Shown in pieces: positions 6,596-34,851 of a stretch of 64,000 bases of DNA. The translations under genes and the position numbers were made by a program. The notes beneath the pieces were generated by a model that made no database searches, was not told the DNA's origin, and worked only from the letters and a program-made list of their open reading frames with translations. The stretch comes from an uncultured Chloroflexia bacterium (GTDB lineage Bacteria; Chloroflexota; Dehalococcoidia; DSTF01; JALHUB01): positions 1 through 64,000 of the forward strand of contig CAVSBT010000044.1 of assembly GCA_963726245.1 (NCBI GenBank), in the 5' to 3' direction. The number at the start of each line of letters is the position of its first letter. Positions within the stretch are counted from its first letter, which is position 1.

Positions 6596-9463
6596 TTACG
6601 CGAGGGGGGCCTGGGTCTCCTGCGCCAGCCGCGCCGCCTGCTTTACGATCTCCGGCCAGCTAGCGACGAGGGCATTGTACCCCAGCGCGGGCTCAGCCCA
6701 GCCCTTACGGTCGCAGATGTCATAGAGGCGGTAGGCCAGGTCCCGCGCCTGGTCCGCCAGGCCGCCGAGCCGACGGGCCAGCCGGGCGGCACCCTGCTCA
6801 CCGCTCTGGTCCAGGGCGGCGATGAGGTAGTGGCAGGCCTCCCACACCGTCGGGCGGCGGTCCGTTACCGGATCGTAGGCCTCCACAGTCTCTTCATAGT
6901 AGGCTAAGGGCTTGAGCTTCATTTTGCCGCCCTTGGCCTCGAGGATGCCATCTCGAGCCATAGCGTCAACGCCGATGCCCTTCGCGCGGGCGAGCACGTC
7001 CGCCTCCCCGTAGGGGCCCTCGCTGAAGCCGTGCTGCTCGACCCATCGGGCGCAGAACTGGGTGTCCGGGTCCAGGTCCCCTTCCTGCTCCGTGAGGTAG
7101 TCCTCGATGGCGCGATTGATGAGCTGGAGGGCGGCGCGAACGGACATGGCCTCGCCACTGGCTTCCAGCACCTTGCTGTAGCTGGAGAAGACGGCCATGC
7201 CGGGCCCGATGGCGGCCTGAGCCAGGTCCACGGGGGCGATATGGCCACCCATGAGGTGCCGGAGCGCCTTGGGCAGCTCCTCCCGCAGCCCTTGCACGAA
7301 CTCTTTCCGCGTGGCAATGGGAGCGTCCTCCCGCCGCGGCCGGCATGCCAGGACGACGGCTGACGCCAGGGCGTTGGTTGCGCGCGCGACGTTCCTAGTA
7401 CCCATCTCGGTTCGCACGGGCCAGGTGCCCGTGACCCGAAATCCAGCTCCTAGCAGGCCGCGCAGCATCGTCTCCCAGGCGCTAGAGGTGGCCAGGACAC
7501 CACCGTCGCCGCCGTCCTCCTCCTCGCGCTGCTTGAAGGCGTAAATGACGGAGACCGGGTACTCGCGATGGGCCCGCTCGCGGAGCAGTGTGAAGGCCTT
7601 GTGGAGCCCTTCCTCGAAGTGGCGCTCCGCCGCCTTCTTGTCGCCGCCGAACCGGTAGGGGGTGGCCACCAGCTCCGGCCCCTTGGGCGTGAGGACCGTG
7701 GCGAAGAGGTCGGGGTAGAGCCGGCCCAGCGTGCAGCGGAGCCAGACGTAGAAGAAGTCGGACAGATCAGCATAGCCAATGTTGTCATAGTATGGAGGGT
7801 CCGTGGCCACGAGGCAGCCAGGAACATCGTGCATGTGCGACGCGGCATCGAATTGGCCGATGATCGCCTGGAGGCCGTCTGGTGGCAGGTACTCAAGTGT
7901 AGCCGCTAGTGTGTTACAGACTGTTTCTATGCTACCGACTGACTCGCTGAATGGATTCACTTCAGCATAGTCCCACGTCATTGGGAGAGCTTGCCTGGCG
8001 AATGTAACCCGGACAGTTGCCACCCTCGCCGATCTCCCGCTTGCGGTGCGGTTCGAAGTCGGGCAGACGTCCCAGGTAGCGATGGTTGAACCTTTGTCGG
8101 CTAGCTTGCTAAGGGTGAAGGCCAGGTATGTAGCGACGGCGTCTGCGTAGGCCGTGGCGCCGGTGCCGCCCTCGGCGATGCCTACACCATCGTCGGGAAA
8201 ACCAGCCTGGCAGGCGTGCTCCAGGGCCAGGGCCCGCGCCTCGCCGACAAGGTCGCTGAACTTGGTGAGCACCACTAGCTGCCGGGGGGTGAAGAGGTCC
8301 GCGAAGGTGGTGAGGCCGTAGTTAGGAGTCTTGAAGTCCCGCGGATTATGAGGGAGCTGGACTTCGTCCAGGAACGATGGCGTGCTCTGGACCCATTCCT
8401 GGTCAACACGGCCGAAGGAACGGTACCCTCGTGCCCGTTCTCCTTCGGTAACGACGGCCATCGGCCCTACGCCCAGACCGTGGCGTCTGCCCCAAGATCG
8501 CACGTGGTCGAAAGCAACCGGACTTCCGCACACTACACACCTAGCGCCCTTGCGATTGACCGTCCCCTCAATACTTGGTTTGCCGCCCGTTCGTACTTCG
8601 AATCGCACCGTCTTTGCTTCCCGGTCCACGACCGGGTCCACCCAGGCCTCTTTGCCCTTCATTCTCGAGAGCCAGAAGGAGCGCACCAGGGGCATCTGGG
8701 CGCCGCAGGCCGGGTTGGGGCACTTCACGGTTCTCGCCCACAGCCAGGCGATGACGGTCTCGCCGTTGGGCCCCTTCGGGTACAGGTGGCCTATCCGCTC
8801 CCAGGCGCGGTCGCGCATCCACTTGCCGTACCAGCGTACGTCGGCGGCCAGGCCGGCGGCGCCCTTCCAGGCCGTGCCCTGCCCCATCTGCTTGCGGGCG
8901 TCTGGGTTCACCGGCGGCCGCCCCGCGAACTTAGGCGGGATCTCTACCAGGGCCTTGGTGATGAGGACGGCCACGGGGTTCAGCTCGCTGGCGTAGACAT
9001 CCAGCCCCAGGCGCTGACCCTCGAGAGGGATGGAGCCGCCTCCGCAGAAGGGGTCGAGCAGCGGCGGCGGATTGCCGTCGGTGGCGGCCCGGATCAGCTC
9101 CCGGGCGGTGCCGATCACGGTCTCGTTGGTCGTGTTCTCCCACTTCACCAGCTTGCCGATGAACTCGAATAGCCGGCCCCGGCGCTGCTCGCCCGTGGAC
9201 AGGGCATCCCAGTCGATAGGCAGCGGGTCAGGCGCCGGCAGCCGGTCGATGGCCTCCAGCAGCTCCTTTGGGCAGCCCTCGCTCTCGGGGTCGTCCACCA
9301 GTGAGGCGAAGATGACGGCTCGACAGGTGGCCAGGGGCCGGCGGGCCCACCACAGGTGCATGGTGGACGGGTGCCCATGGCGTATCGACTTCTCGCGGGC
9401 GCTCTCGGCGTTGATGGCGTCCAGCGGCAGGGCAACCTCGATGAGCTTCTTGCGAGTGGTCAT
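6596..9463 (-). CDS. DUF1156 DNA amino-methyltransferase
   Basis: KKLIEVALPL, LWWARRPL, motif I DPFCGGG, motif IV DPPYY; ATG at 9463 overlaps the upstream stop. Confidence 0.92.
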   Translation of the reverse strand: MTTRKKLIEVALPLDAINAESAREKSIRHGHPSTMHLWWARRPLATCRAVIFASLVDDPESEGCPKELLEAIDRLPAPDPLPIDWDALSTGEQRRGRLFEFIGKLVKWENTTNETVIGTARELIRAATDGNPPPLLDPFCGGGSIPLEGQRLGLDVYASELNPVAVLITKALVEIPPKFAGRPPVNPDARKQMGQGTAWKGAAGLAADVRWYGKWMRDRAWERIGHLYPKGPNGETVIAWLWARTVKCPNPACGAQMPLVRSFWLSRMKGKEAWVDPVVDREAKTVRFEVRTGGKPSIEGTVNRKGARCVVCGSPVAFDHVRSWGRRHGLGVGPMAVVTEGERARGYRSFGRVDQEWVQSTPSFLDEVQLPHNPRDFKTPNYGLTTFADLFTPRQLVVLTKFSDLVGEARALALEHACQAGFPDDGVGIAEGGTGATAYADAVATYLAFTLSKLADKGSTIATWDVCPTSNRTASGRSARVATVRVTFARQALPMTWDYAEVNPFSESVGSIETVCNTLAATLEYLPPDGLQAIIGQFDAASHMHDVPGCLVATDPPYYDNIGYADLSDFFYVWLRCTLGRLYPDLFATVLTPKGPELVATPYRFGGDKKAAERHFEEGLHKAFTLLRERAHREYPVSVIYAFKQREEEDGGDGGVLATSSAWETMLRGLLGAGFRVTGTWPVRTEMGTRNVARATNALASAVVLACRPRREDAPIATRKEFVQGLREELPKALRHLMGGHIAPVDLAQAAIGPGMAVFSSYSKVLEASGEAMSVRAALQLINRAIEDYLTEQEGDLDPDTQFCARWVEQHGFSEGPYGEADVLARAKGIGVDAMARDGILEAKGGKMKLKPLAYYEETVEAYDPVTDRRPTVWEACHYLIAALDQSGEQGAARLARRLGGLADQARDLAYRLYDICDRKGWAEPALGYNALVASWPEIVKQAARLAQETQAPLA

Positions 9464-27988: not shown

Positions 27989-28618
27989 TCACTTGCCTTC
28001 TTCCTGCCGCAATTGCTCGATGACCAGGCGGTCGCCCTCGAAGGCCAGGTCGGGCGGCGGCTCATCGATCGGGAAGAAGCGCAGCTCCTCGAGGTCGTCG
28101 TCGGCCCGCATCTCGCCGCCGGCGACCTTCGCCAGGAACCAGAGGCCTATCACCGGCCGGCCGGCCACCTGGAAGTTCGAGTGGACGGCGTAGAGTCGCC
28201 CCAGTTCCACCTCCAGGCCGGTCTCCTCTCGAAACTCGCGCCGCGCCGCATCGCGCACGTCCTCGTCGGCCTCAACGTAGCCGCAGGGGATGCACCACCG
28301 CCCCTCGAATGGGGAGGTGCGACGCCGCCCCAGGAGCAGGCGCCCGTCCTGCACGACGACCACGGCCACGCCGGGCAGAGGGTTGGCGTGGAGGACGTAG
28401 TCGCAGCGGGGGCAGGCCGGCCGCTCCCGGCCGCCGACGGCCCGCCGCTCGAGGCCGGCGCCGCAGCGGGGGCAGAAGCGATGCGTCTCCACCTCGAAGG
28501 CGGCGCGGCAGTCGGGACAAACGACCCTGTTGCCGACGGGGTGTCGGTAGAGGTCATGCTGGGCCCCACAGCGCGGGCAGGTGACGGAGGAGGACTTGTC
28601 CGTGTTGGTCTGTGTCAA
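27989..28618 (-). CDS. Zn-ribbon Nudix hydrolase
   Basis: CxxC pairs and Nudix box [22 protein letters not shown]. Confidence 0.9.
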
Positions 28619-29625
28619 TCTGTGGCTGATCCCGGCTGCGCCAGCCAGGCGGCGGCCTCCTTGGCGTGGTAGGTGATGATGATGTCGGCGCCGGCCCGCT
28701 TGATGGCCGTGAGCACCTCCAGCGCCGCGCGCCGGCCGTCGAGCCAGCCCAGGCGGTCGGCCGCCTTCACCATAGCGTACTCGCCGCTGACGTTGTAGGC
28801 CGCCAGGGGCAGGTCGAAGCGCCGGCGAGCGCGGGCTATCACGTCCAGATAGGCGAGGGCCGGCTTCACCATCACGATGTCCGCCCCCTCGGCGATGTCG
28901 GCCTCGATCTCGCGGAGGGCCTCGCGGACGTTGGGCGGGTCCATCTGATAGCCGCGGCGGTCGCCGAACTGCGGCGCCGAGTCGGCGGCGACGCGGAAGG
29001 GGCCGTAGAAGGCGGAGGCGTACTTGGCGGCGTAGGCCATGATCGGCAGGTGGGCGAAGCCGCCGTCGTCCAGGGCGCGGCGGATGGCCGCCACGCGGCC
29101 GTCCATCATGTCCGAGGGCGCCACCATGTCGGCGCCGGCGCGGGCGTGCGAGAGGGCCGTGCGGGCCAGCAGCTCCAGCGTGCGGTCATTGTCCACCTCG
29201 CCATCCTCCACAACCCCGCAGTGGCCGTGGCTGGTGTACTCGCAGAGGCAGACATCGGTGATGACGACCAGCTCCGGCGCGGTCCGCTTGAGGATGCGCA
29301 CCGCCTCCTGGACGATGCCGTCGTCGGCGTAGGCCTCGCTGCCCTCGTCGTCCTTGGCGGCGGGCAGGCCGAAGAGGAGGACGGCGGGGATGCCGAGGGC
29401 GCGCAGCTCCTCGGCCTCGCGGGCCAGCCCGTCGGGCGAGAGGTGGTACTGGCCGGGCATGGACTCGATCTCCCGTCGCAGGCCGTGGCCGTGGGCGACG
29501 AAGAGGGGGTAGACGAAGTCGGCGGGCGAGAGGCGGGTCTCCCGCACGAGGCCGCGCAGCCCCTCGCTGCGCCGTAGGCGGCGGAAGCGCGCGAAAGTGG
29601 GGTGAAGGACGGTGCGGGTGGTCAT
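28615..29625 (-). CDS. hemB: porphobilinogen synthase
   Basis: [42 protein letters not shown]. Confidence 0.97.
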
Positions 29626-29681: not shown

Positions 29682-30719
29682 CTACGGCTTGAGCACTATC
29701 TTCCCGAAGTGGCTCCCCGTCTCGAGCATCTGCTGCGCCTTCGCCGCGTCGCGCAGCGGCAGCACGGTGTCCACCACGCACTTGATCTTGCCCGCCTCGA
29801 CGGCCTTTAGCCCCTCCAGCAGCTCGCCCTTGTTCCCCTGGTGAGAGCCCAGCAACGAGAGCTGCTTCTGGAAGAGGAAGCGGAGGTCGGTCCGGCCCTC
29901 GAAGCCGGTGGTGACGCCGCAGATCACAAGCCGCCCGCCCCAGGACATGGCCTGGATGCTGCGCTCCCAGGTGGCCTCGCCGGTGTGCTCGAAGACCACC
30001 TCCACCCCTTTCCGGCCGGCGATGCGTTTGACCTCGGCCACCACGTCCTGCGTGTTATAGTTGACAGCCGCATCGGCACCGAGGGCCTTCGCCTTGGCGC
30101 ACTTCTCGTCCGTCCCGCCGACGGCGATGACGCGGGCGCCCGTCAACTTCGCCACCTGAATGGCCACGTGGCCGATGCCGCTGCTGGCGCCCCAGACGAG
30201 CACGTCCTCGCCCGGCTTGAGCTGCGCCCTCCCGATCAGCATGTGCCAGACCGTCAGCAGCACCAGGCCGATGCCCGCCCCTTCCTCCCAACTCAGGTTG
30301 GCGGGCATGGGTACCACGTTGGCCTCGGGTATGCGGGCGTACTCGCCGTAGGCGCCGTCCAGGGGCCCCGTCTGGAAGCCGTATATCTTGAAATGGCGGC
30401 AGAAGTACTCGTTGCCCGAGGTACAGGCGGCGCAAATCCGGCAGCTCACGCCGGGGTGGATCATGACCTTGTCGCCTACCTTGACAGTGGTGACGGCGCC
30501 GCCCACTTCCGCAACCTCGCCGGCGATGTCGCTGCCCGAGATATGCGGCAGGTCGAACTTCATGCCAGGCAGCCCCCGCCGGGCCCACACGTCGTTGAAG
30601 TTGCAGCCGATGGCGTGGATCTTGATGATGACGTCTGTCGGGCCCGGCTTGGGGTCCGGCACGTCCTCGTACTTCAAGACCTCTGGTCCGCCGTGCTCGT
30701 GGAACACAACCGCTTTCAT
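29682..30719 (-). CDS. zinc-binding medium-chain dehydrogenase/reductase
   Basis: PHISGSD, structural Zn CxxCxxC..C, GASSGIG; paralog of 46282..47337. Confidence 0.9.
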   Translation of the reverse strand: MKAVVFHEHGGPEVLKYEDVPDPKPGPTDVIIKIHAIGCNFNDVWARRGLPGMKFDLPHISGSDIAGEVAEVGGAVTTVKVGDKVMIHPGVSCRICAACTSGNEYFCRHFKIYGFQTGPLDGAYGEYARIPEANVVPMPANLSWEEGAGIGLVLLTVWHMLIGRAQLKPGEDVLVWGASSGIGHVAIQVAKLTGARVIAVGGTDEKCAKAKALGADAAVNYNTQDVVAEVKRIAGRKGVEVVFEHTGEATWERSIQAMSWGGRLVICGVTTGFEGRTDLRFLFQKQLSLLGSHQGNKGELLEGLKAVEAGKIKCVVDTVLPLRDAAKAQQMLETGSHFGKIVLKP

Positions 30720-30954: not shown

Positions 30955-30983
30955 TTGAGAGCACGCTGCGACGGTGATATGAT
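30955..30983 (+). promoter_or_regulatory. promoter of fluoride riboswitch 1
   Basis: TTGAGA-17 bp-TATGAT with extended TG. Confidence 0.6.
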
Positions 30984-30999
30984 ACATGGCGCAGGAAAC

Positions 31000-31090
31000 G
31001 GGCGATGAAGCTCGCCCGCCCGGATCATCCGGGGTACCGCCCAAACAGGGCTGATAGCTTCTACGGACTCACAGCCGTAGGAGCTTTCTT
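31000..31090 (+). ncRNA. fluoride riboswitch (crcB motif) 1 with intrinsic terminator
   Basis: GGCGATGAAGCTCGCC...ACCGCCC-AAACA-GGGCTGATAGCTTCTAC; terminator AGCTTCTACGG..CCGTAGGAGCT-TTCTT overlaps the aptamer 3' end. Confidence 0.88.
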
Positions 31091-31174
31091 GATGACGGGT
31101 TATGCCAGGCTCAAGCGTTCTGCAACCTTTCCCTTAGAGCCGACCAATCCATAGCTCTAGTATCGCTTGCTCCA

Positions 31175-31567
31175 ATGCCTACACGAACACCCTTCGACGT
31201 CCTTGGAGTCCCTCCTCATGCTAAGCTTGCCGTCATCCGTGCTGCATACCGCGCCCTCGCTCGGAAATACCACCCAGACACCGGTCGCATCCCCAGTGAC
31301 AGATCGCACAAGCTCATGGTCGAGCTCAACTGGGCAATGGAGGAGCTGCAACGCGATCTTGCCGGCTGGCGAACACGGGCTGGCGTCCAGCAGCCCGCCG
31401 ACGCGAAGACCGACTCTTCCGTCAGAGTCCAGAACAATGAAGCCCCTGACTCCTCCACGCCCCACGCCAAGGCCTTTGACGAACGATGGAGGCGATTCAT
31501 GGAGAAGTACTCGAGGAGCTGCTCCACGGACTCCTCCGACGAGACGCCGCTCTCAAAGAGCTGGTGA
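31175..31567 (+). CDS. small J-domain (DnaJ-like) protein
   Basis: PFDVLGV..IRAAYRALARKYHPD..MVELNWA. Confidence 0.85.
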   Translation: MPTRTPFDVLGVPPHAKLAVIRAAYRALARKYHPDTGRIPSDRSHKLMVELNWAMEELQRDLAGWRTRAGVQQPADAKTDSSVRVQNNEAPDSSTPHAKAFDERWRRFMEKYSRSCSTDSSDETPLSKSW

Positions 31568-31648
31568 AAGCCAGTGCCACCCCACAGTCGAAGAGGCGAG
31601 CGCTTGAGGCCGGGTGTCGGAGGTGCTAGCATATAGACACGGAAAACG

Positions 31649-31739
31649 GGGCGATGAAGCTCGCCCGCCCGGACCATCTGGGGTACCGCCCAAACAGGGC
31701 TGATAGCTTCTACGGATTCACAGCCGTAGGAGCTTTTTT
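31649..31739 (+). ncRNA. fluoride riboswitch 2 with intrinsic terminator
   Basis: Near-identical to copy 1; preceded by TTGAGG-17 bp-TAGCAT; terminator with T-tract. Confidence 0.88.
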
Positions 31740-31740
31740 C

Positions 31741-32607
31741 ATGGGGTTTGGGGAACGCGCTGTGGTCAGCACAGAGGTGGCGCCGCTCGCGCTGGACCTT
31801 TCTCGGGTCGCGGGCTACGTGGCATCGTGCCGCGTACCCGATGGAGGGTACTTCTTCGCCCAGATCTCGCCTGCCAGCGCCCAAGACACCTACTTCGCCC
31901 TTGCCTCTCTGCGACTCCTTGGGCAAGAGCCCCAAGACGTGACGGGTGTGAAACGATGGGTAGAGGAATGGCGCCGGACACCCAGTAACGTGGCCAGCGT
32001 CCACGGCGCGTACCTTCTCTGCGGCCTGCTTGAAGAGCTAGGCGAAGGCCTCGATCCGGCGCGTCCCTACGCCAGGCTGATCGCCGACAGCGAGAATAGC
32101 CTGGGGGGCTTCGGTACCTACGAGAACGTGTACGTGGAATCGGCATCAGAGCTTCAGGTGACCTGCGAGGTCGTGTCGGTGCTGACAAGATTGGGATGCC
32201 CGCCCAACCATGAGCGTGTTGAGAGTTTCTTGCGTCGGTTCCGTCAGCCAGACGGCGGATTCGGCCTCTACCGCTCGACGCTGCCCTCAACCTACCACGC
32301 GTGCGCCGCGCTTGCCCAACTGCCGGAGTCAGGGCCCCTCGTGGACGGCGCGCGGCTCTACCTCCAACGAGAGGCGCAGCGGTGGGCGGCTTATTTCCTA
32401 GACGATGTCTTCTACCTGATCCAAGGACTCAGCTTGACCGGCAGCGCGGCGGCATCTGCCGCCAATGCTGCCACCCACGTGCTGGCCTGCCAGCGGCCGC
32501 GGGGTGGCTTTGCCCGCGCTCCCGTCATCGGCATTCCCACGCTGGAGCACACCTACTACGCCCTTCAGGTGCTCGATTCGGTGGGTCTCCTCAGCGGGCA
32601 GCGATGA
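31741..32607 (+). CDS. prenyltransferase/squalene-oxidase-repeat (alpha/alpha toroid) protein
   Basis: Repeats PDGGY..DTYFAL, LGGFG, PDGGFG..STYHA, PRGGFA..HTYYAL; start may be GTG near 31762. Confidence 0.8.
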   Translation: MGFGERAVVSTEVAPLALDLSRVAGYVASCRVPDGGYFFAQISPASAQDTYFALASLRLLGQEPQDVTGVKRWVEEWRRTPSNVASVHGAYLLCGLLEELGEGLDPARPYARLIADSENSLGGFGTYENVYVESASELQVTCEVVSVLTRLGCPPNHERVESFLRRFRQPDGGFGLYRSTLPSTYHACAALAQLPESGPLVDGARLYLQREAQRWAAYFLDDVFYLIQGLSLTGSAAASAANAATHVLACQRPRGGFARAPVIGIPTLEHTYYALQVLDSVGLLSGQR

Positions 32608-34007
32608 GAAATGACGAGGGGATGCAAGCATTGAACCAGGTCCCCAAGAGTGAGGCCCCCAAAGACACCGCCGAAGCGGTCGTGCTGCGACCGAGGGGCA
32701 CGTACAACGACTTCGTGTTTGATGAGCGATACCGTATGGTACGCCTGAAGGGGGTGGTCCGCCGGGCCGGCTCGGTGGCCGAGGTGGGAGAGGTGCGCGG
32801 GGCATGGGACTCCGACGGCGAGCCCTTCCAGGCTCTGGTATTCACCGCTTTGCCCACATTGCCCGGCTGTATAGTCCGCGGCCACGTCGAGGGCGCGCTG
32901 GAGGGTCGAACTGCGGAGGGCGCCAGGCATGCGCTCGTGCTGAGCACAGCCGGTCAGGGCGATGCTCTGTCTCAGAAAACGCTGGCTGGGCAGGTCCTAC
33001 CAACGGCTGTCGCCCTCCTAGGTTGGAGGCCGTCCACCGAGGTGCGGTGGCTGGAGAAGGACGCAGCGCTCGCCCTGCTGTGGGAGGGACGCCAGAGACT
33101 GCTTGCCGATCGCGCCCGGCAGCGGCCGGCGCGGCATGGCGCCGCCTGGAAGGCGCAGCCCGGTGAACGCCCCCGAGAGGGTTCGCCCTACACGGAACCC
33201 CACACCTGGGCCGAAAGGATGGTGGGCAGCCTGCCCTTCCGATTCCAGCGTTATGTGCAGGACGAGCTTCTGGAGGAGGAACGCATACTCTTCTTCGTGG
33301 AGCGGCCTCCCTTCCGGCCGCCTGGGGCGCGCTGGGGCGTCCTGCGACGGCAGCGGTTGAGCGAAGGGCTTCTCATCGTCACCGACCGGCAGCTCTTGTT
33401 CATGGAGGACGCTCTGCCCCCAGACATAACGATGGTTCACTGGGGGTACATCGCCCGTGTGACGGCCGTGGAACGAATCCAGAGCGCAGAGCTGCGCGCG
33501 GAACCCGACCGCGCTGTCCTTCACGTCCGGGTGCATGCGCAATCTGGGTCAGAGCACCTCTCTGTGCCCTTTCCCCCGGAATGCAAGGACCCTCTCGCCG
33601 AAGTCGAGTCGCTCCTGCGGTCCTTCGCTTCGCCTGAAGGCGGCGCGGTCAGACGCCTCTACGCCGAGGAAGACGGGGCGAAAGACAGGGAGGTCGTGGA
33701 GGCGTCCAGCCGGGTAGGGAACTGGGCACGGGTCGAGGGGAAGGATGTGGTGGTTCACGGCCCGCGCGGCGAGGCGCGCCTTGACTCTGCCTGCATCTCG
33801 ACTGTCGAGTTCATGAACTCACTGGTGGGGTGCCGCTTGAGATTCTTCTCGCCACAAGAGAGGCACCTTACCGAGTCCTCGGTGCCCTTCGAGTACCCTG
33901 AGGCTGAGCTGTTCCTGGCGGTCTACAAGAGGGTTCGCTGGCTGCTCGCGAGGCCGCTCGCTGCCCAGCCAGCCGGGCAAGACGCCGCCGCAACCGTGCA
34001 GCGATGA
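32604..34007 (+). CDS. degenerate family-I pyrophosphatase-like domain fused to PH-like domains
   Basis: VVLRPRGTYNDFVFD..DSDGEPFQALV..PTLPGCIV resembles family I PPase; later EGLLIVTDRQLLF resembles bacterial PH domains; ATGA-coupled to the upstream gene. Confidence 0.55.
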   Translation: MRNDEGMQALNQVPKSEAPKDTAEAVVLRPRGTYNDFVFDERYRMVRLKGVVRRAGSVAEVGEVRGAWDSDGEPFQALVFTALPTLPGCIVRGHVEGALEGRTAEGARHALVLSTAGQGDALSQKTLAGQVLPTAVALLGWRPSTEVRWLEKDAALALLWEGRQRLLADRARQRPARHGAAWKAQPGERPREGSPYTEPHTWAERMVGSLPFRFQRYVQDELLEEERILFFVERPPFRPPGARWGVLRRQRLSEGLLIVTDRQLLFMEDALPPDITMVHWGYIARVTAVERIQSAELRAEPDRAVLHVRVHAQSGSEHLSVPFPPECKDPLAEVESLLRSFASPEGGAVRRLYAEEDGAKDREVVEASSRVGNWARVEGKDVVVHGPRGEARLDSACISTVEFMNSLVGCRLRFFSPQERHLTESSVPFEYPEAELFLAVYKRVRWLLARPLAAQPAGQDAAATVQR

Positions 34008-34157
34008 CGGCGGCCCGGCCACCCGGAAGCCCCTGCGCTCTTGTTCCAAAACGCTCAGCGGCGTGGACCTGGCCCCCCGCCCGGCCGAGGGTGCTGACTC
34101 TGCTATACTGGCGCCGCTGCACGGAGCCGATAAGCCATTATGACGGCAAGGTGTCCT

Positions 34158-34851
34158 ATGGCAAGGCTGCTGGCGGCGCTGACCGTCGTCCTCATGCTCA
34201 CCCTCACTGCCTGCAAGAACGCCACATCTCACCACCACTGGGACGCCCAAAGGGATCGCAGAGCGCATAGACTGCATCGCGGGAACGCCCGAAGCCATCA
34301 TGGGGTGTGTAGAGCGTGCGGTGGCAGGCTCGGGAGGGTATCGCATTACGATCACCGGTCAGAATCTTGTCCTGCCCGAGTGGGGCGGGATCGACAGCGG
34401 AACGATTGATGTCGGCACGGACGGGACTGTGGTCCGAGGTGACGTCGAACGCACCGGTGACGGGCCATACTCCCTCGTCTCACTTGGCGGCGAGACGTTC
34501 TTCCAGCGCGGGACTTGTGACCACATGGCCCGTGTTCCTGGTGGCGGAGCGGCCGTGGTCACGCCCTTCCTGCTGGGCACCAGCGGGGCGTTGAGCCGAG
34601 CTACGAATGTGCGATTCGGTGGGACCGCCTACAAGGACTTCATAGCGGTCCGGGCGAACGTTGAAGACCTCGGTGACGTGCTCATCCAGCTTGACACGTC
34701 GACCTACCTTCCGTTTCGACTGGTCAAAGAGCCTGGCCCCAACGGCGGAAGCCAATTCCAGTGGCTGTTCAGCGATTGGGGACAGGCGCCGTCGGTCTCA
34801 AGACCGGCCGGCACACCCCCAGATCAGGGACCGGGCGGCAACCCCTGCTGA
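34158..34851 (+). CDS. putative lipoprotein (frameshift near 34250)
   Basis: Lipobox LTAC in ORF 34140..34409; body in ORF 34300..34851. Confidence 0.55.

Follow-up and report, generated by a model that had tools for sequence, protein, structure and literature searches.

Two near-identical RNAs of the crcB motif, each followed on the same strand by its own gene unit, were analysed at positions 30,955 to 34,007 of a 64,000-nucleotide stretch of DNA from an uncultured Chloroflexia bacterium (contig CAVSBT010000044.1 of assembly GCA_963726245.1, placed by GTDB in the Dehalococcoidia). The whole stretch is referred to here as the window. Both leaders are genuine fluoride riboswitches, as judged by the RF01734 model, their fold and their terminators. 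The genes behind them are three open reading frames (ORFs) that encode a J-domain protein (ORF1, J), an alpha/alpha-toroid protein (ORF2, B) and a protein in which a pyrophosphatase-like fold is joined to two PH-like units (ORF3, C). The best explanation of the region as a whole, to which we give a probability of roughly 70%, is that it holds tandem fluoride-induced units and that B and C are soluble, non-enzymatic components of a fluoride-stress regulon. It is very probable that the genes are controlled by fluoride and belong to such a regulon, and an adaptor or proteostasis role for the proteins is put forward tentatively.

The source assembly (labelled G000) comprises 2.68 Mb in 46 contigs, and is 82.8% complete with 6.3% contamination. 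Two genes of relatives are given working names, A for a coiled-coil protein and D for a DUF6062 protein. Loci labelled L are from genomes or metagenomes, and labels with G denote genomes, with G001 the nearest reference genome.

Twin fluoride riboswitches and their terminators

The features of the region are listed in Table 1. Both riboswitch copies, RS1 and RS2, cover the full RF01734 model (positions 1-64 of 64) with high posterior, and both score above its curated gathering score of 34 bits. These were the only RF01734 matches in the whole 2.68-Mb assembly. The copies are offset by 649 nucleotides (nt); at that offset 70 of the 79 aptamer positions are identical, with only three differences within 31000-31070. 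The aptamer helices P1 and P2 (distinct from the promoter-like sites of the same names in Table 1) are present in the RF01734 alignment and in the minimum-free-energy folds of both copies.

Table 1. Location, description and evidence for the features of the twin-riboswitch region, in window coordinates (aa, amino acids; bp, base pairs; SD, Shine-Dalgarno sequence)
Feature	Position	Strand	Description	Evidence
P1	30955..30983	+	Promoter-like site, TTGAGA-17 nt-TATGAT, TG ahead of the second hexamer	Promoter scan, 10/12
RS1	30992..31070	+	Aptamer copy 1, 16-nt inserted hairpin between helices P1 and P2	RF01734, 39.3 bits, E 2.2e-07
T1	31056..31092 (hairpin 31056-31085)	+	Terminator, 11-bp stem AGCUUCUACGG/CCGUAGGAGCU and U-rich tail	Terminator scan and fold
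20-codon ORF	31093..31155	+	Opens at the duplicated SD-ATG of the switch platform	Sequence and copy alignment
ORF1 (J)	31175..31567	+	130 aa, J domain with HPD, low-complexity tail	PF00226, E 4.9e-10, 39.8 bits (cut-off 27.8)
P2	31604..31632	+	Promoter-like site, TTGAGG-17 nt-TAGCAT	Read by eye, 8/12, under the scan threshold
RS2	31641..31719	+	Aptamer copy 2	RF01734, 37.3 bits, E 1e-06
T2	31705..31740 (hairpin 31705-31734)	+	Terminator, same 11-bp stem and UUUUUU	Terminator scan and fold
ORF2 (B)	31741..32607	+	288 aa, alpha/alpha toroid, prenyltransferase-beta / squalene-cyclase fold	PF00432, E 9.8e-13
ORF3 (C)	32604..34007	+	467 aa, start overlaps the ORF2 stop (ATGA)	Model, Foldseek, profile, riboswitch association

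The inserted hairpin, of 16 nt and 6 bp, folds as predicted in RS1 and RS2. Its arms are CCCGGA/UCCGGG in RS1 and CCCGGA/UCUGGG in RS2, the single arm change turning a G-C pair into a G-U pair. The hairpin was found in 25 of the 27 related riboswitch copies compared, with at least eight different complementary arm sequences, and the arms thus vary in a compensating manner. The pseudoknot strands, GAAGCU in the P1 loop and AGCUUC in the 3' tail, are complementary in both copies; when the alignment is read directly, they are altered on both sides relative to the Rfam consensus GGAGU/ACUCC. One pseudoknot pair is changed from U-A to C-G in L034_D, L041 and L004, and the core nucleotides are invariant across the 27 copies. 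An earlier reading of the sequence alone (the original prediction) had proposed two near-identical crcB-motif RNAs with an inserted hairpin and a pairing pseudoknot, and each of these elements was confirmed.

The possibility that the twin copies are an assembly artefact was considered and rejected, as 9 of the 79 aptamer positions and the flanks differ between them. Contigs from other public runs, at ~95% identity, span the junctions from T1 to J (X2 record 9) and from J to RS2 (X4 record 24), which indicates that the twin arrangement exists in related strains and did not arise in one assembly. The runs (X1-X4) cover the stretch in part, with a word share of 0.20-0.22, and their uncovered parts carry no meaning.

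The folding energies of T1 and T2 are -19.6 and -17.5 kcal/mol, with z-scores of -4.3 and -4.5, respectively. The 5' arm of each terminator is the 3' strand of the pseudoknot, and the liganded aptamer and the terminator would therefore be mutually exclusive. The 3' arm of T2 also holds GGAG (31729-31732), 8 nt ahead of the ORF2 ATG, so that the hairpin would mask the ribosome-binding site as well. According to Weinberg 2010 (PMC2864571), terminators overlapping the crcB motif imply ON switches.

Each copy had also been assigned its own promoter and terminator in the original prediction. Both terminators and the P1 site were recovered by scanning, while the P2 site remained under the scan threshold; the latter aligns with CTTGAG...TGGTAG[A/C/T]AT boxes conserved in relatives. 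The promoter scan returned two promoter-like sites in 3.6 kb, compared with 0.3 expected from shuffles. The promoter-switch-terminator cassette is copied in the window down to the SD and ATG, and the 20-codon ORF that follows copy 1 is probably a relic of this duplication.

The arrangement is consistent with two tandem fluoride-inducible units, each with its own promoter, crcB-motif aptamer and overlapping intrinsic terminator. When fluoride is absent, the 11-bp terminator would form and bury the ribosome-binding GGAG. When fluoride is bound, in the form of the Mg-fluoride complex of known members, AGCUUC would be held in the pseudoknot, the terminator would be blocked and transcription would continue. 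Unit 1, transcribed from P1, would yield the J-domain protein, and unit 2, from P2, would yield B and C, which are predicted to be translationally coupled. Any read-through out of unit 1 would also have to clear the second switch.

These leaders share with the terminator-type ON fluoride riboswitches (RF01734) the full model, both helices, the pseudoknot, the conserved core nucleotides and the competition between terminator and pseudoknot strand. They differ in the extra hairpin between P1 and P2, which is a feature of this Chloroflexota group as set against the Rfam model only. They differ further in being a tandem pair with own promoters, and in having a cargo that includes no exporter and no enzyme known to be sensitive to fluoride.

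Riboswitch association of B and C in the Chloroflexota

A pattern scan with confirmation gave 42 loci encoding C, of which 5 were from genomes and 37 from metagenomes. The five genome records are all titled Chloroflexi, Chloroflexia or Dehalococcoidia metagenome-assembled genomes. Seventeen loci with too little sequence upstream of the gene run were set aside, leaving 25 usable loci that span 30-92% identity to window C. A fluoride riboswitch was present at the expected upstream place in 24 of the 25. The same-strand upstream RF01734 match reached at least 34 bits in 16 loci, and matches of 24.8-31.4 bits were present at that place in a further eight (L030, L034, L039, L040, L041, L043, L004 and L007). 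L037 was the sole locus among the 25 with no upstream RF01734 match.

Of 400 other genomes sampled evenly from the phylum, 25 matched a profile of the PH core of C. In 14 of these 25 genomes, a riboswitch match (E <= 0.001) precedes the C-core match by no more than 3.2 kb on its strand, at 34 bits or more in seven and at 23.7-32.2 bits in the other seven. The riboswitch was 4.6-8.3 kb upstream in three more. With 1-10 riboswitch matches per genome of 2-8 Mb, chance adjacency was estimated at ~0.001 per genome.

B is rare, and was present in 3 of 401 genomes when the source genome is counted. All three carry a riboswitch 22-31 nt ahead of the B start, and two of them have B without C. In the first of these two (G321; L098, G321:C4:28674-31566), B stands behind its own riboswitch and is followed by a second riboswitch and a gene for a dynamin-like GTPase. 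In the second (G074; L099, G074:C1:233600-237000), the neighbours of B are a divergent riboswitch with a Na+/H+ exchanger gene and a DUF190 gene. B and C are each riboswitch cargo in their own right. The original prediction had proposed a survey of whether homologues of 31741-34007 recurrently follow fluoride riboswitches, and this was observed for both genes.

In close relatives, whose C is 83-92% identical to that of the window, a single switch is followed by A (193 aa, coiled coil), B and C. These relatives also carry D, a protein of ~460 aa with four CxxC...CxxH modules, an N-terminal DUF6062 (1.2e-11) and its own riboswitch. In L011-L016 and L020 the D gene is convergent; it is divergent in L034, and in L003 it lies upstream as a tandem gene. 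D and the third riboswitch lie at L013:7415-8939 (minus strand), L003:2214-4320 and L034:6-415, and are also present in L011, L012, L014, L016 and L020. Neither A nor D was found by tblastn in the 82.8%-complete source assembly. Downstream of C in the window there was no gathering-level riboswitch match and no tblastn match to D.

The regulon is broader in other loci. MoxR, DUF58 and DUF4129 genes come after C in L004, and a MoxR gene does so in L041. L034 has three switches around C, together with an MFS gene and a gene for a Na+/H+ exchanger. A 30-kb stretch of G230 (L096 and L097; G230:C30:185000-217000) has 10 RF01734 matches. One operon within it is ordered switch, C, a 174-aa gene, DUF190-CBS, CrcB and CrcB. 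The other cargo there includes Mrp/NADH-dehydrogenase-like subunits, a Na+/H+ exchanger, a HEAT protein, a MutS-domain-V pair and a dynamin-DUF6062 fusion beside a NACHT protein. G230 also has a MoxR gene immediately after a riboswitch, and a DUF4129 gene follows it on that strand.

The original prediction had stated that no exporter is present in the operon. No gene for CrcB (PF02537) or CLC (PF00654) was detected in the operon or in the source assembly at its 82.8% completeness. G001 also has no CrcB, and its only switches are the two of the module. G003 and G004 have both the C module and a CrcB gene with its own switch, and in G230 C shares one operon with two CrcB genes; the module is thus not a general alternative to exporters.

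Several further features of these loci were recorded. In a clade with 35% identity, the riboswitch is immediately preceded by four tRNA genes (L023:1177-1629, L024:4311-4764, L026:3023-3474 and L036:4314-4765). In L024, a T-box leader (7658-7882) comes immediately after the C homologue. One in-frame stop was present in each of three B or C homologues, at L010:669-1520 and L024:5067-5927 (B) and at L031:777-1685 (C). These stops could be sequencing errors, pseudogenes or tblastn overruns past the true end, and the three fragments were excluded from the B and C alignments. In the window, a lipoprotein-like ORF (34140-34409) is located at the place where relatives carry D and its switch, and a promoter-like sequence on the minus strand (34137-34164, TTGCCA-16-CATAAT, 10/12) is directed back at the end of ORF3. 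On the other side lie a NUDIX hydrolase gene with an N-terminal double zinc ribbon (27989-28618, minus strand), hemB (28615-29625) and a zinc alcohol dehydrogenase gene (29682-30719); all three are ordinary neighbours with apparently no relation to the switches.

Predicted properties of the encoded proteins

The gene content given in the original prediction was upheld by the Pfam matches, with DnaJ and Prenyltrans domains above their cut-offs (Table 1) and the Pyrophosphatase domain of C below its own. The structural model of C (predicted local distance difference test, pLDDT, 76.9) comprises a pyrophosphatase-like barrel (residues ~22-175) and two PH-like units (~228-342 and ~365-448), each a beta-sandwich plus helix. 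The barrel matched 4z73_D in Foldseek (E 3e-11, probability 1.00, target template-modelling (TM) score 0.63), and a profile of 27 C homologues matched the pyrophosphatase of T. thermophilus (PDB 2prd) at E 4.2e-15. Window C alone matched PF00719 at E 0.006 (16.8 bits, under the cut-off of 23.5), and 53 of 90 C-family members matched it at E <= 0.001.

The family-I catalytic set, which we take to be E20, K29, E31, R43, Y55, D65, D67, D70, D97, D102 and K104 in E. coli numbering, reads L, D, V, G, V, D, E, Q, T, R and A in window C, with one of the 11 positions kept (D71). Among the 90 C-family members at most four of the 11 are kept, in an alignment that averages 19% identity and in which single columns may be misplaced. 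On this comparison C is a pseudoenzyme that appears to have lost the pyrophosphatase site family-wide, in line with the dead domain described in the original prediction.

Conservation in C is concentrated ahead of and within the first PH-like unit (W182, E204, R213, E226, R227, T260, G281 and R291), and R351 in the linker after that unit is also conserved; E226, R227, T260, D261, R262, W280 and Y282 are invariant. The pyrophosphatase-like domain is the least conserved part of the protein, with only L48 and P84 nearly invariant. The domain is lacking or replaced in three C-family members (P0034, P0035 and P0037). In P0035, an A-like coiled-coil N-terminus takes its place and is fused to the PH-like core of C, a fusion that ties A to C. 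The pattern suggests that the N-terminal part of C is an exchangeable scaffold.

The PH-like units are putative, and the secondary-structure pattern of the model fits them; a structure search with the whole C model gave only pyrophosphatases among the matches listed. The bPH_3 model (PF14470) was matched by 3 of the 90 C-family members, and window C matched no bPH Pfam model. In an atlas search with the PH core of C, unnamed clusters scored 0.91 and a bPH_3 cluster scored 0.84; these are feature-based leads only. The model of C resembles bacterial PH domains in its two beta-sandwich-plus-helix units, and C differs from them in the fusion to a pyrophosphatase fold. With family-I pyrophosphatases (PF00719), which are often encoded behind fluoride riboswitches, C shares the fold and a detectable profile homology; however, 10 of the 11 catalytic positions are replaced, and a 270-residue tandem PH-like extension is the conserved part. 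Some sources label proteins of the C family 'inorganic pyrophosphatase'.

B scored 48.6 bits against PF00432 (cut-off 26.5), and its structure was predicted with a pLDDT of 86.2. Foldseek matched it to 6o60_B (E 6.9e-07, TM 0.67), and the nearest structures were beta subunits of protein geranylgeranyltransferases and squalene-hopene or other class II terpene cyclases. Four (D)GGF repeats are kept in the 12 aligned homologues. Protein prenyltransferases bind zinc through Asp, Cys and His ligands, and class II cyclases use a DxDD acid. In the sequence alignment of the 12 homologues there is no invariant His and no conserved DxDD; the sole DD pair of B (LDDV) reads ED in the distant clade. B is thus like the prenyltransferase beta subunits and terpene cyclases in its PF00432 match, (D)GGF repeats and toroid (TM 0.67-0.71 to RabGGTase and GGTase3 beta), and apparently unlike them in having no conserved His for a zinc site and no DxDD motif. 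At only 288 aa, it also differs from the prenyltransferases in having no gene for an alpha-subunit partner and in being controlled by a riboswitch.

Hydropathy analysis identified no membrane helix in J, B, C, A or D, the maximum 19-residue value for J, B and C being 1.28. A complex of B and C was predicted with a score of 0.32, compared with 0.00 for the best control, and was graded as weak support. The mark for this score was reached by 58 of 80 solved complexes and by 2 of 110 mismatched pairs, and 7 of those 80 reached it at 0.60 or below. The prediction runs agreed in at least 8% of contacts, and the partner pLDDT was at least 79.

J carries the sequence KYHPDT. A Pfam scan of its 130 residues returned no domain above cut-off beyond the DnaJ domain, and the scores against the full-length DnaJ and CbpA NCBIfam models were far under their cut-offs. 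The J domain with its HPD motif is shared with DnaJ and with CbpA-like small J-domain proteins (PF00226). In contrast to DnaJ, J has no Gly/Phe-rich region, zinc finger or C-terminal client-binding domains, and in contrast to both it sits behind a fluoride riboswitch. Homologues of 130 aa at 87% identity exist. In all close relatives, the position of J is occupied by A, and a J gene beside the module was present in no other locus among those compared. The J homologue of G001, at 45% identity, is on a different contig, and no switch was detected outside the module in that genome. The J gene and the extra switch copy are, by this comparison, lineage-specific and outside the conserved module. The J co-chaperone may have been recruited to the fluoride signal by duplication of the promoter-switch cassette, which would link the response to Hsp70. 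The original prediction had placed J in one module with B and C, which this comparison corrects.

Proposed role and alternative explanations

We propose that B and C have no enzymatic activity and work as soluble members of a fluoride-stress regulon of the Chloroflexota; in other loci this regulon would also include A, the Cys-rich D, MoxR ATPases, Na+/H+ antiporters and CrcB. The conserved first PH-like domain would make C a binding or adaptor module, with the pyrophosphatase-like part serving as a scaffold or oligomerisation domain only. From the adjacency of the genes, the ATGA overlap and the complex score, B may be the partner of C in this lineage. The recurrent chaperone-type company, with J here and MoxR elsewhere, points to protein remodelling or protection under fluoride.

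Several observations weigh against this proposal. The fluoride response, expression and termination are all inferred from sequence. Many of the metagenome loci are near-identical, and their counts overstate the number of independent events. Among the 25 sampled genomes that match the C core, eight have no riboswitch on the contig of C, and three of these have none in the genome. The count of lost catalytic positions depends on the divergent alignment described above and on the list of residues used. The B-C complex score is weak, with one of three runs at 0.00, and B occurs without C in two genomes; the two proteins need not bind each other. The link to J is restricted to the lineage of the window and may therefore be incidental. 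Finally, the PH-like and toroid folds name no ligand.

A more far-reaching explanation is that B and C, together with J in this genome, form an exporter-independent soluble machine for fluoride tolerance. Such a machine would rescue fluoride-locked Mg-dependent phosphoryl-transfer enzymes with Hsp70 or MoxR, or would otherwise neutralise fluoride, and would be the main defence where neither CrcB nor CLC-F is found in a Dehalococcoidia-type genome. We consider this rather unlikely.

C could instead be a decoy or sponge, which binds Mg-fluoride (or Mg-fluoride-pyrophosphate), or which joins the oligomer of the housekeeping pyrophosphatase and shields it. Stoichiometric capture would do little against fluoride, which enters the cell again as HF. 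Family-I pyrophosphatase is a classic fluoride target, and C keeps its fold, with acidic residues at the place of DxDxxD (D71 and E73 in window C, and more in the 35% clade). According to a 2024 review (PMC11139923), genes for pyrophosphatase rank among the most frequent associates of fluoride riboswitches. On the other side, the domain is the least conserved part of C, 10 of its 11 catalytic positions are changed and no more than four are kept in any of the 90 members, and P0034, P0035 and P0037 lack or replace it altogether. No PF00719 pyrophosphatase that could be shielded was found in the 82.8%-complete assembly. This explanation is improbable.

B and C might alternatively be an isoprenoid-diphosphate enzyme pair that remodels membrane lipids and so reduces the entry of HF. 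The nearest structures of B, many of them solved with prenyl diphosphates, and the pyrophosphate-enzyme fold of C would fit such a pair. However, B has neither an invariant His, and so no conserved Asp-Cys-His zinc set, nor DxDD, the catalytic site of C appears lost, no isoprenoid pathway gene was present among the scanned neighbours and all of the proteins are predicted to be soluble. We regard this as very unlikely.

The original prediction had also raised an organofluorine-related module, which would serve defluorination or the handling of released fluoride. The class includes dehalogenating bacteria. Riboswitch-rich fluoride responses in organofluorine makers and degraders are reported in the review cited above (PMC11139923). 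However, no dehalogenase, hydrolase or oxygenase domain was found among the scanned genes of the operon, its flanks and the related loci, and the partners present elsewhere (Na+/H+ antiporter, CrcB, MoxR and dynamin-like GTPase) are those of an inorganic-fluoride response; this part of the original prediction was abandoned as scarcely credible.

It is similarly far-fetched that the leaders are decayed or re-purposed switches that no longer sense fluoride, with the genes constitutive or under another signal: their scores are just 3-5 bits over the cut-off, many related copies are under it and the extra hairpin is absent from the Rfam model, but the full model is matched, the core is invariant in 27 copies, the hairpin and one pseudoknot pair show compensating changes, the terminator architecture is intact in both copies, and the lower scores may be due to the cost in bits of the unmodelled 16-nt insertion.

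Fluoride riboswitches point reliably to genes that matter in fluoride stress, and the Fluc and CLC-F exporters were discovered through them. In the present case they lead to two families of soluble proteins and, in a single lineage, to a co-chaperone of Hsp70; export, pH control and enzyme replacement explain none of these. While the riboswitch class is known, we could not find a description in the literature of B and C as part of the bacterial fluoride response. No paper was found on these proteins, on DUF6062 or on fluoride riboswitches in the Dehalococcoidia, and the papers that linked these switches to the Chloroflexi, to pyrophosphatase or to prenyltransferase proved unrelated; the primary riboswitch gene lists lay outside the coverage of this search and may already name such genes. 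The 'inorganic pyrophosphatase' labels on the C family may inflate the reported link between pyrophosphatases and fluoride switches. If B and C do act in tolerance, they would reveal a cytoplasmic layer of fluoride defence. Fluoride toxicity is described as a major impediment for organofluorine bioremediation strains in the 2024 review (PMC11139923), and a cytoplasmic defence, if true, would be of interest for such strains.

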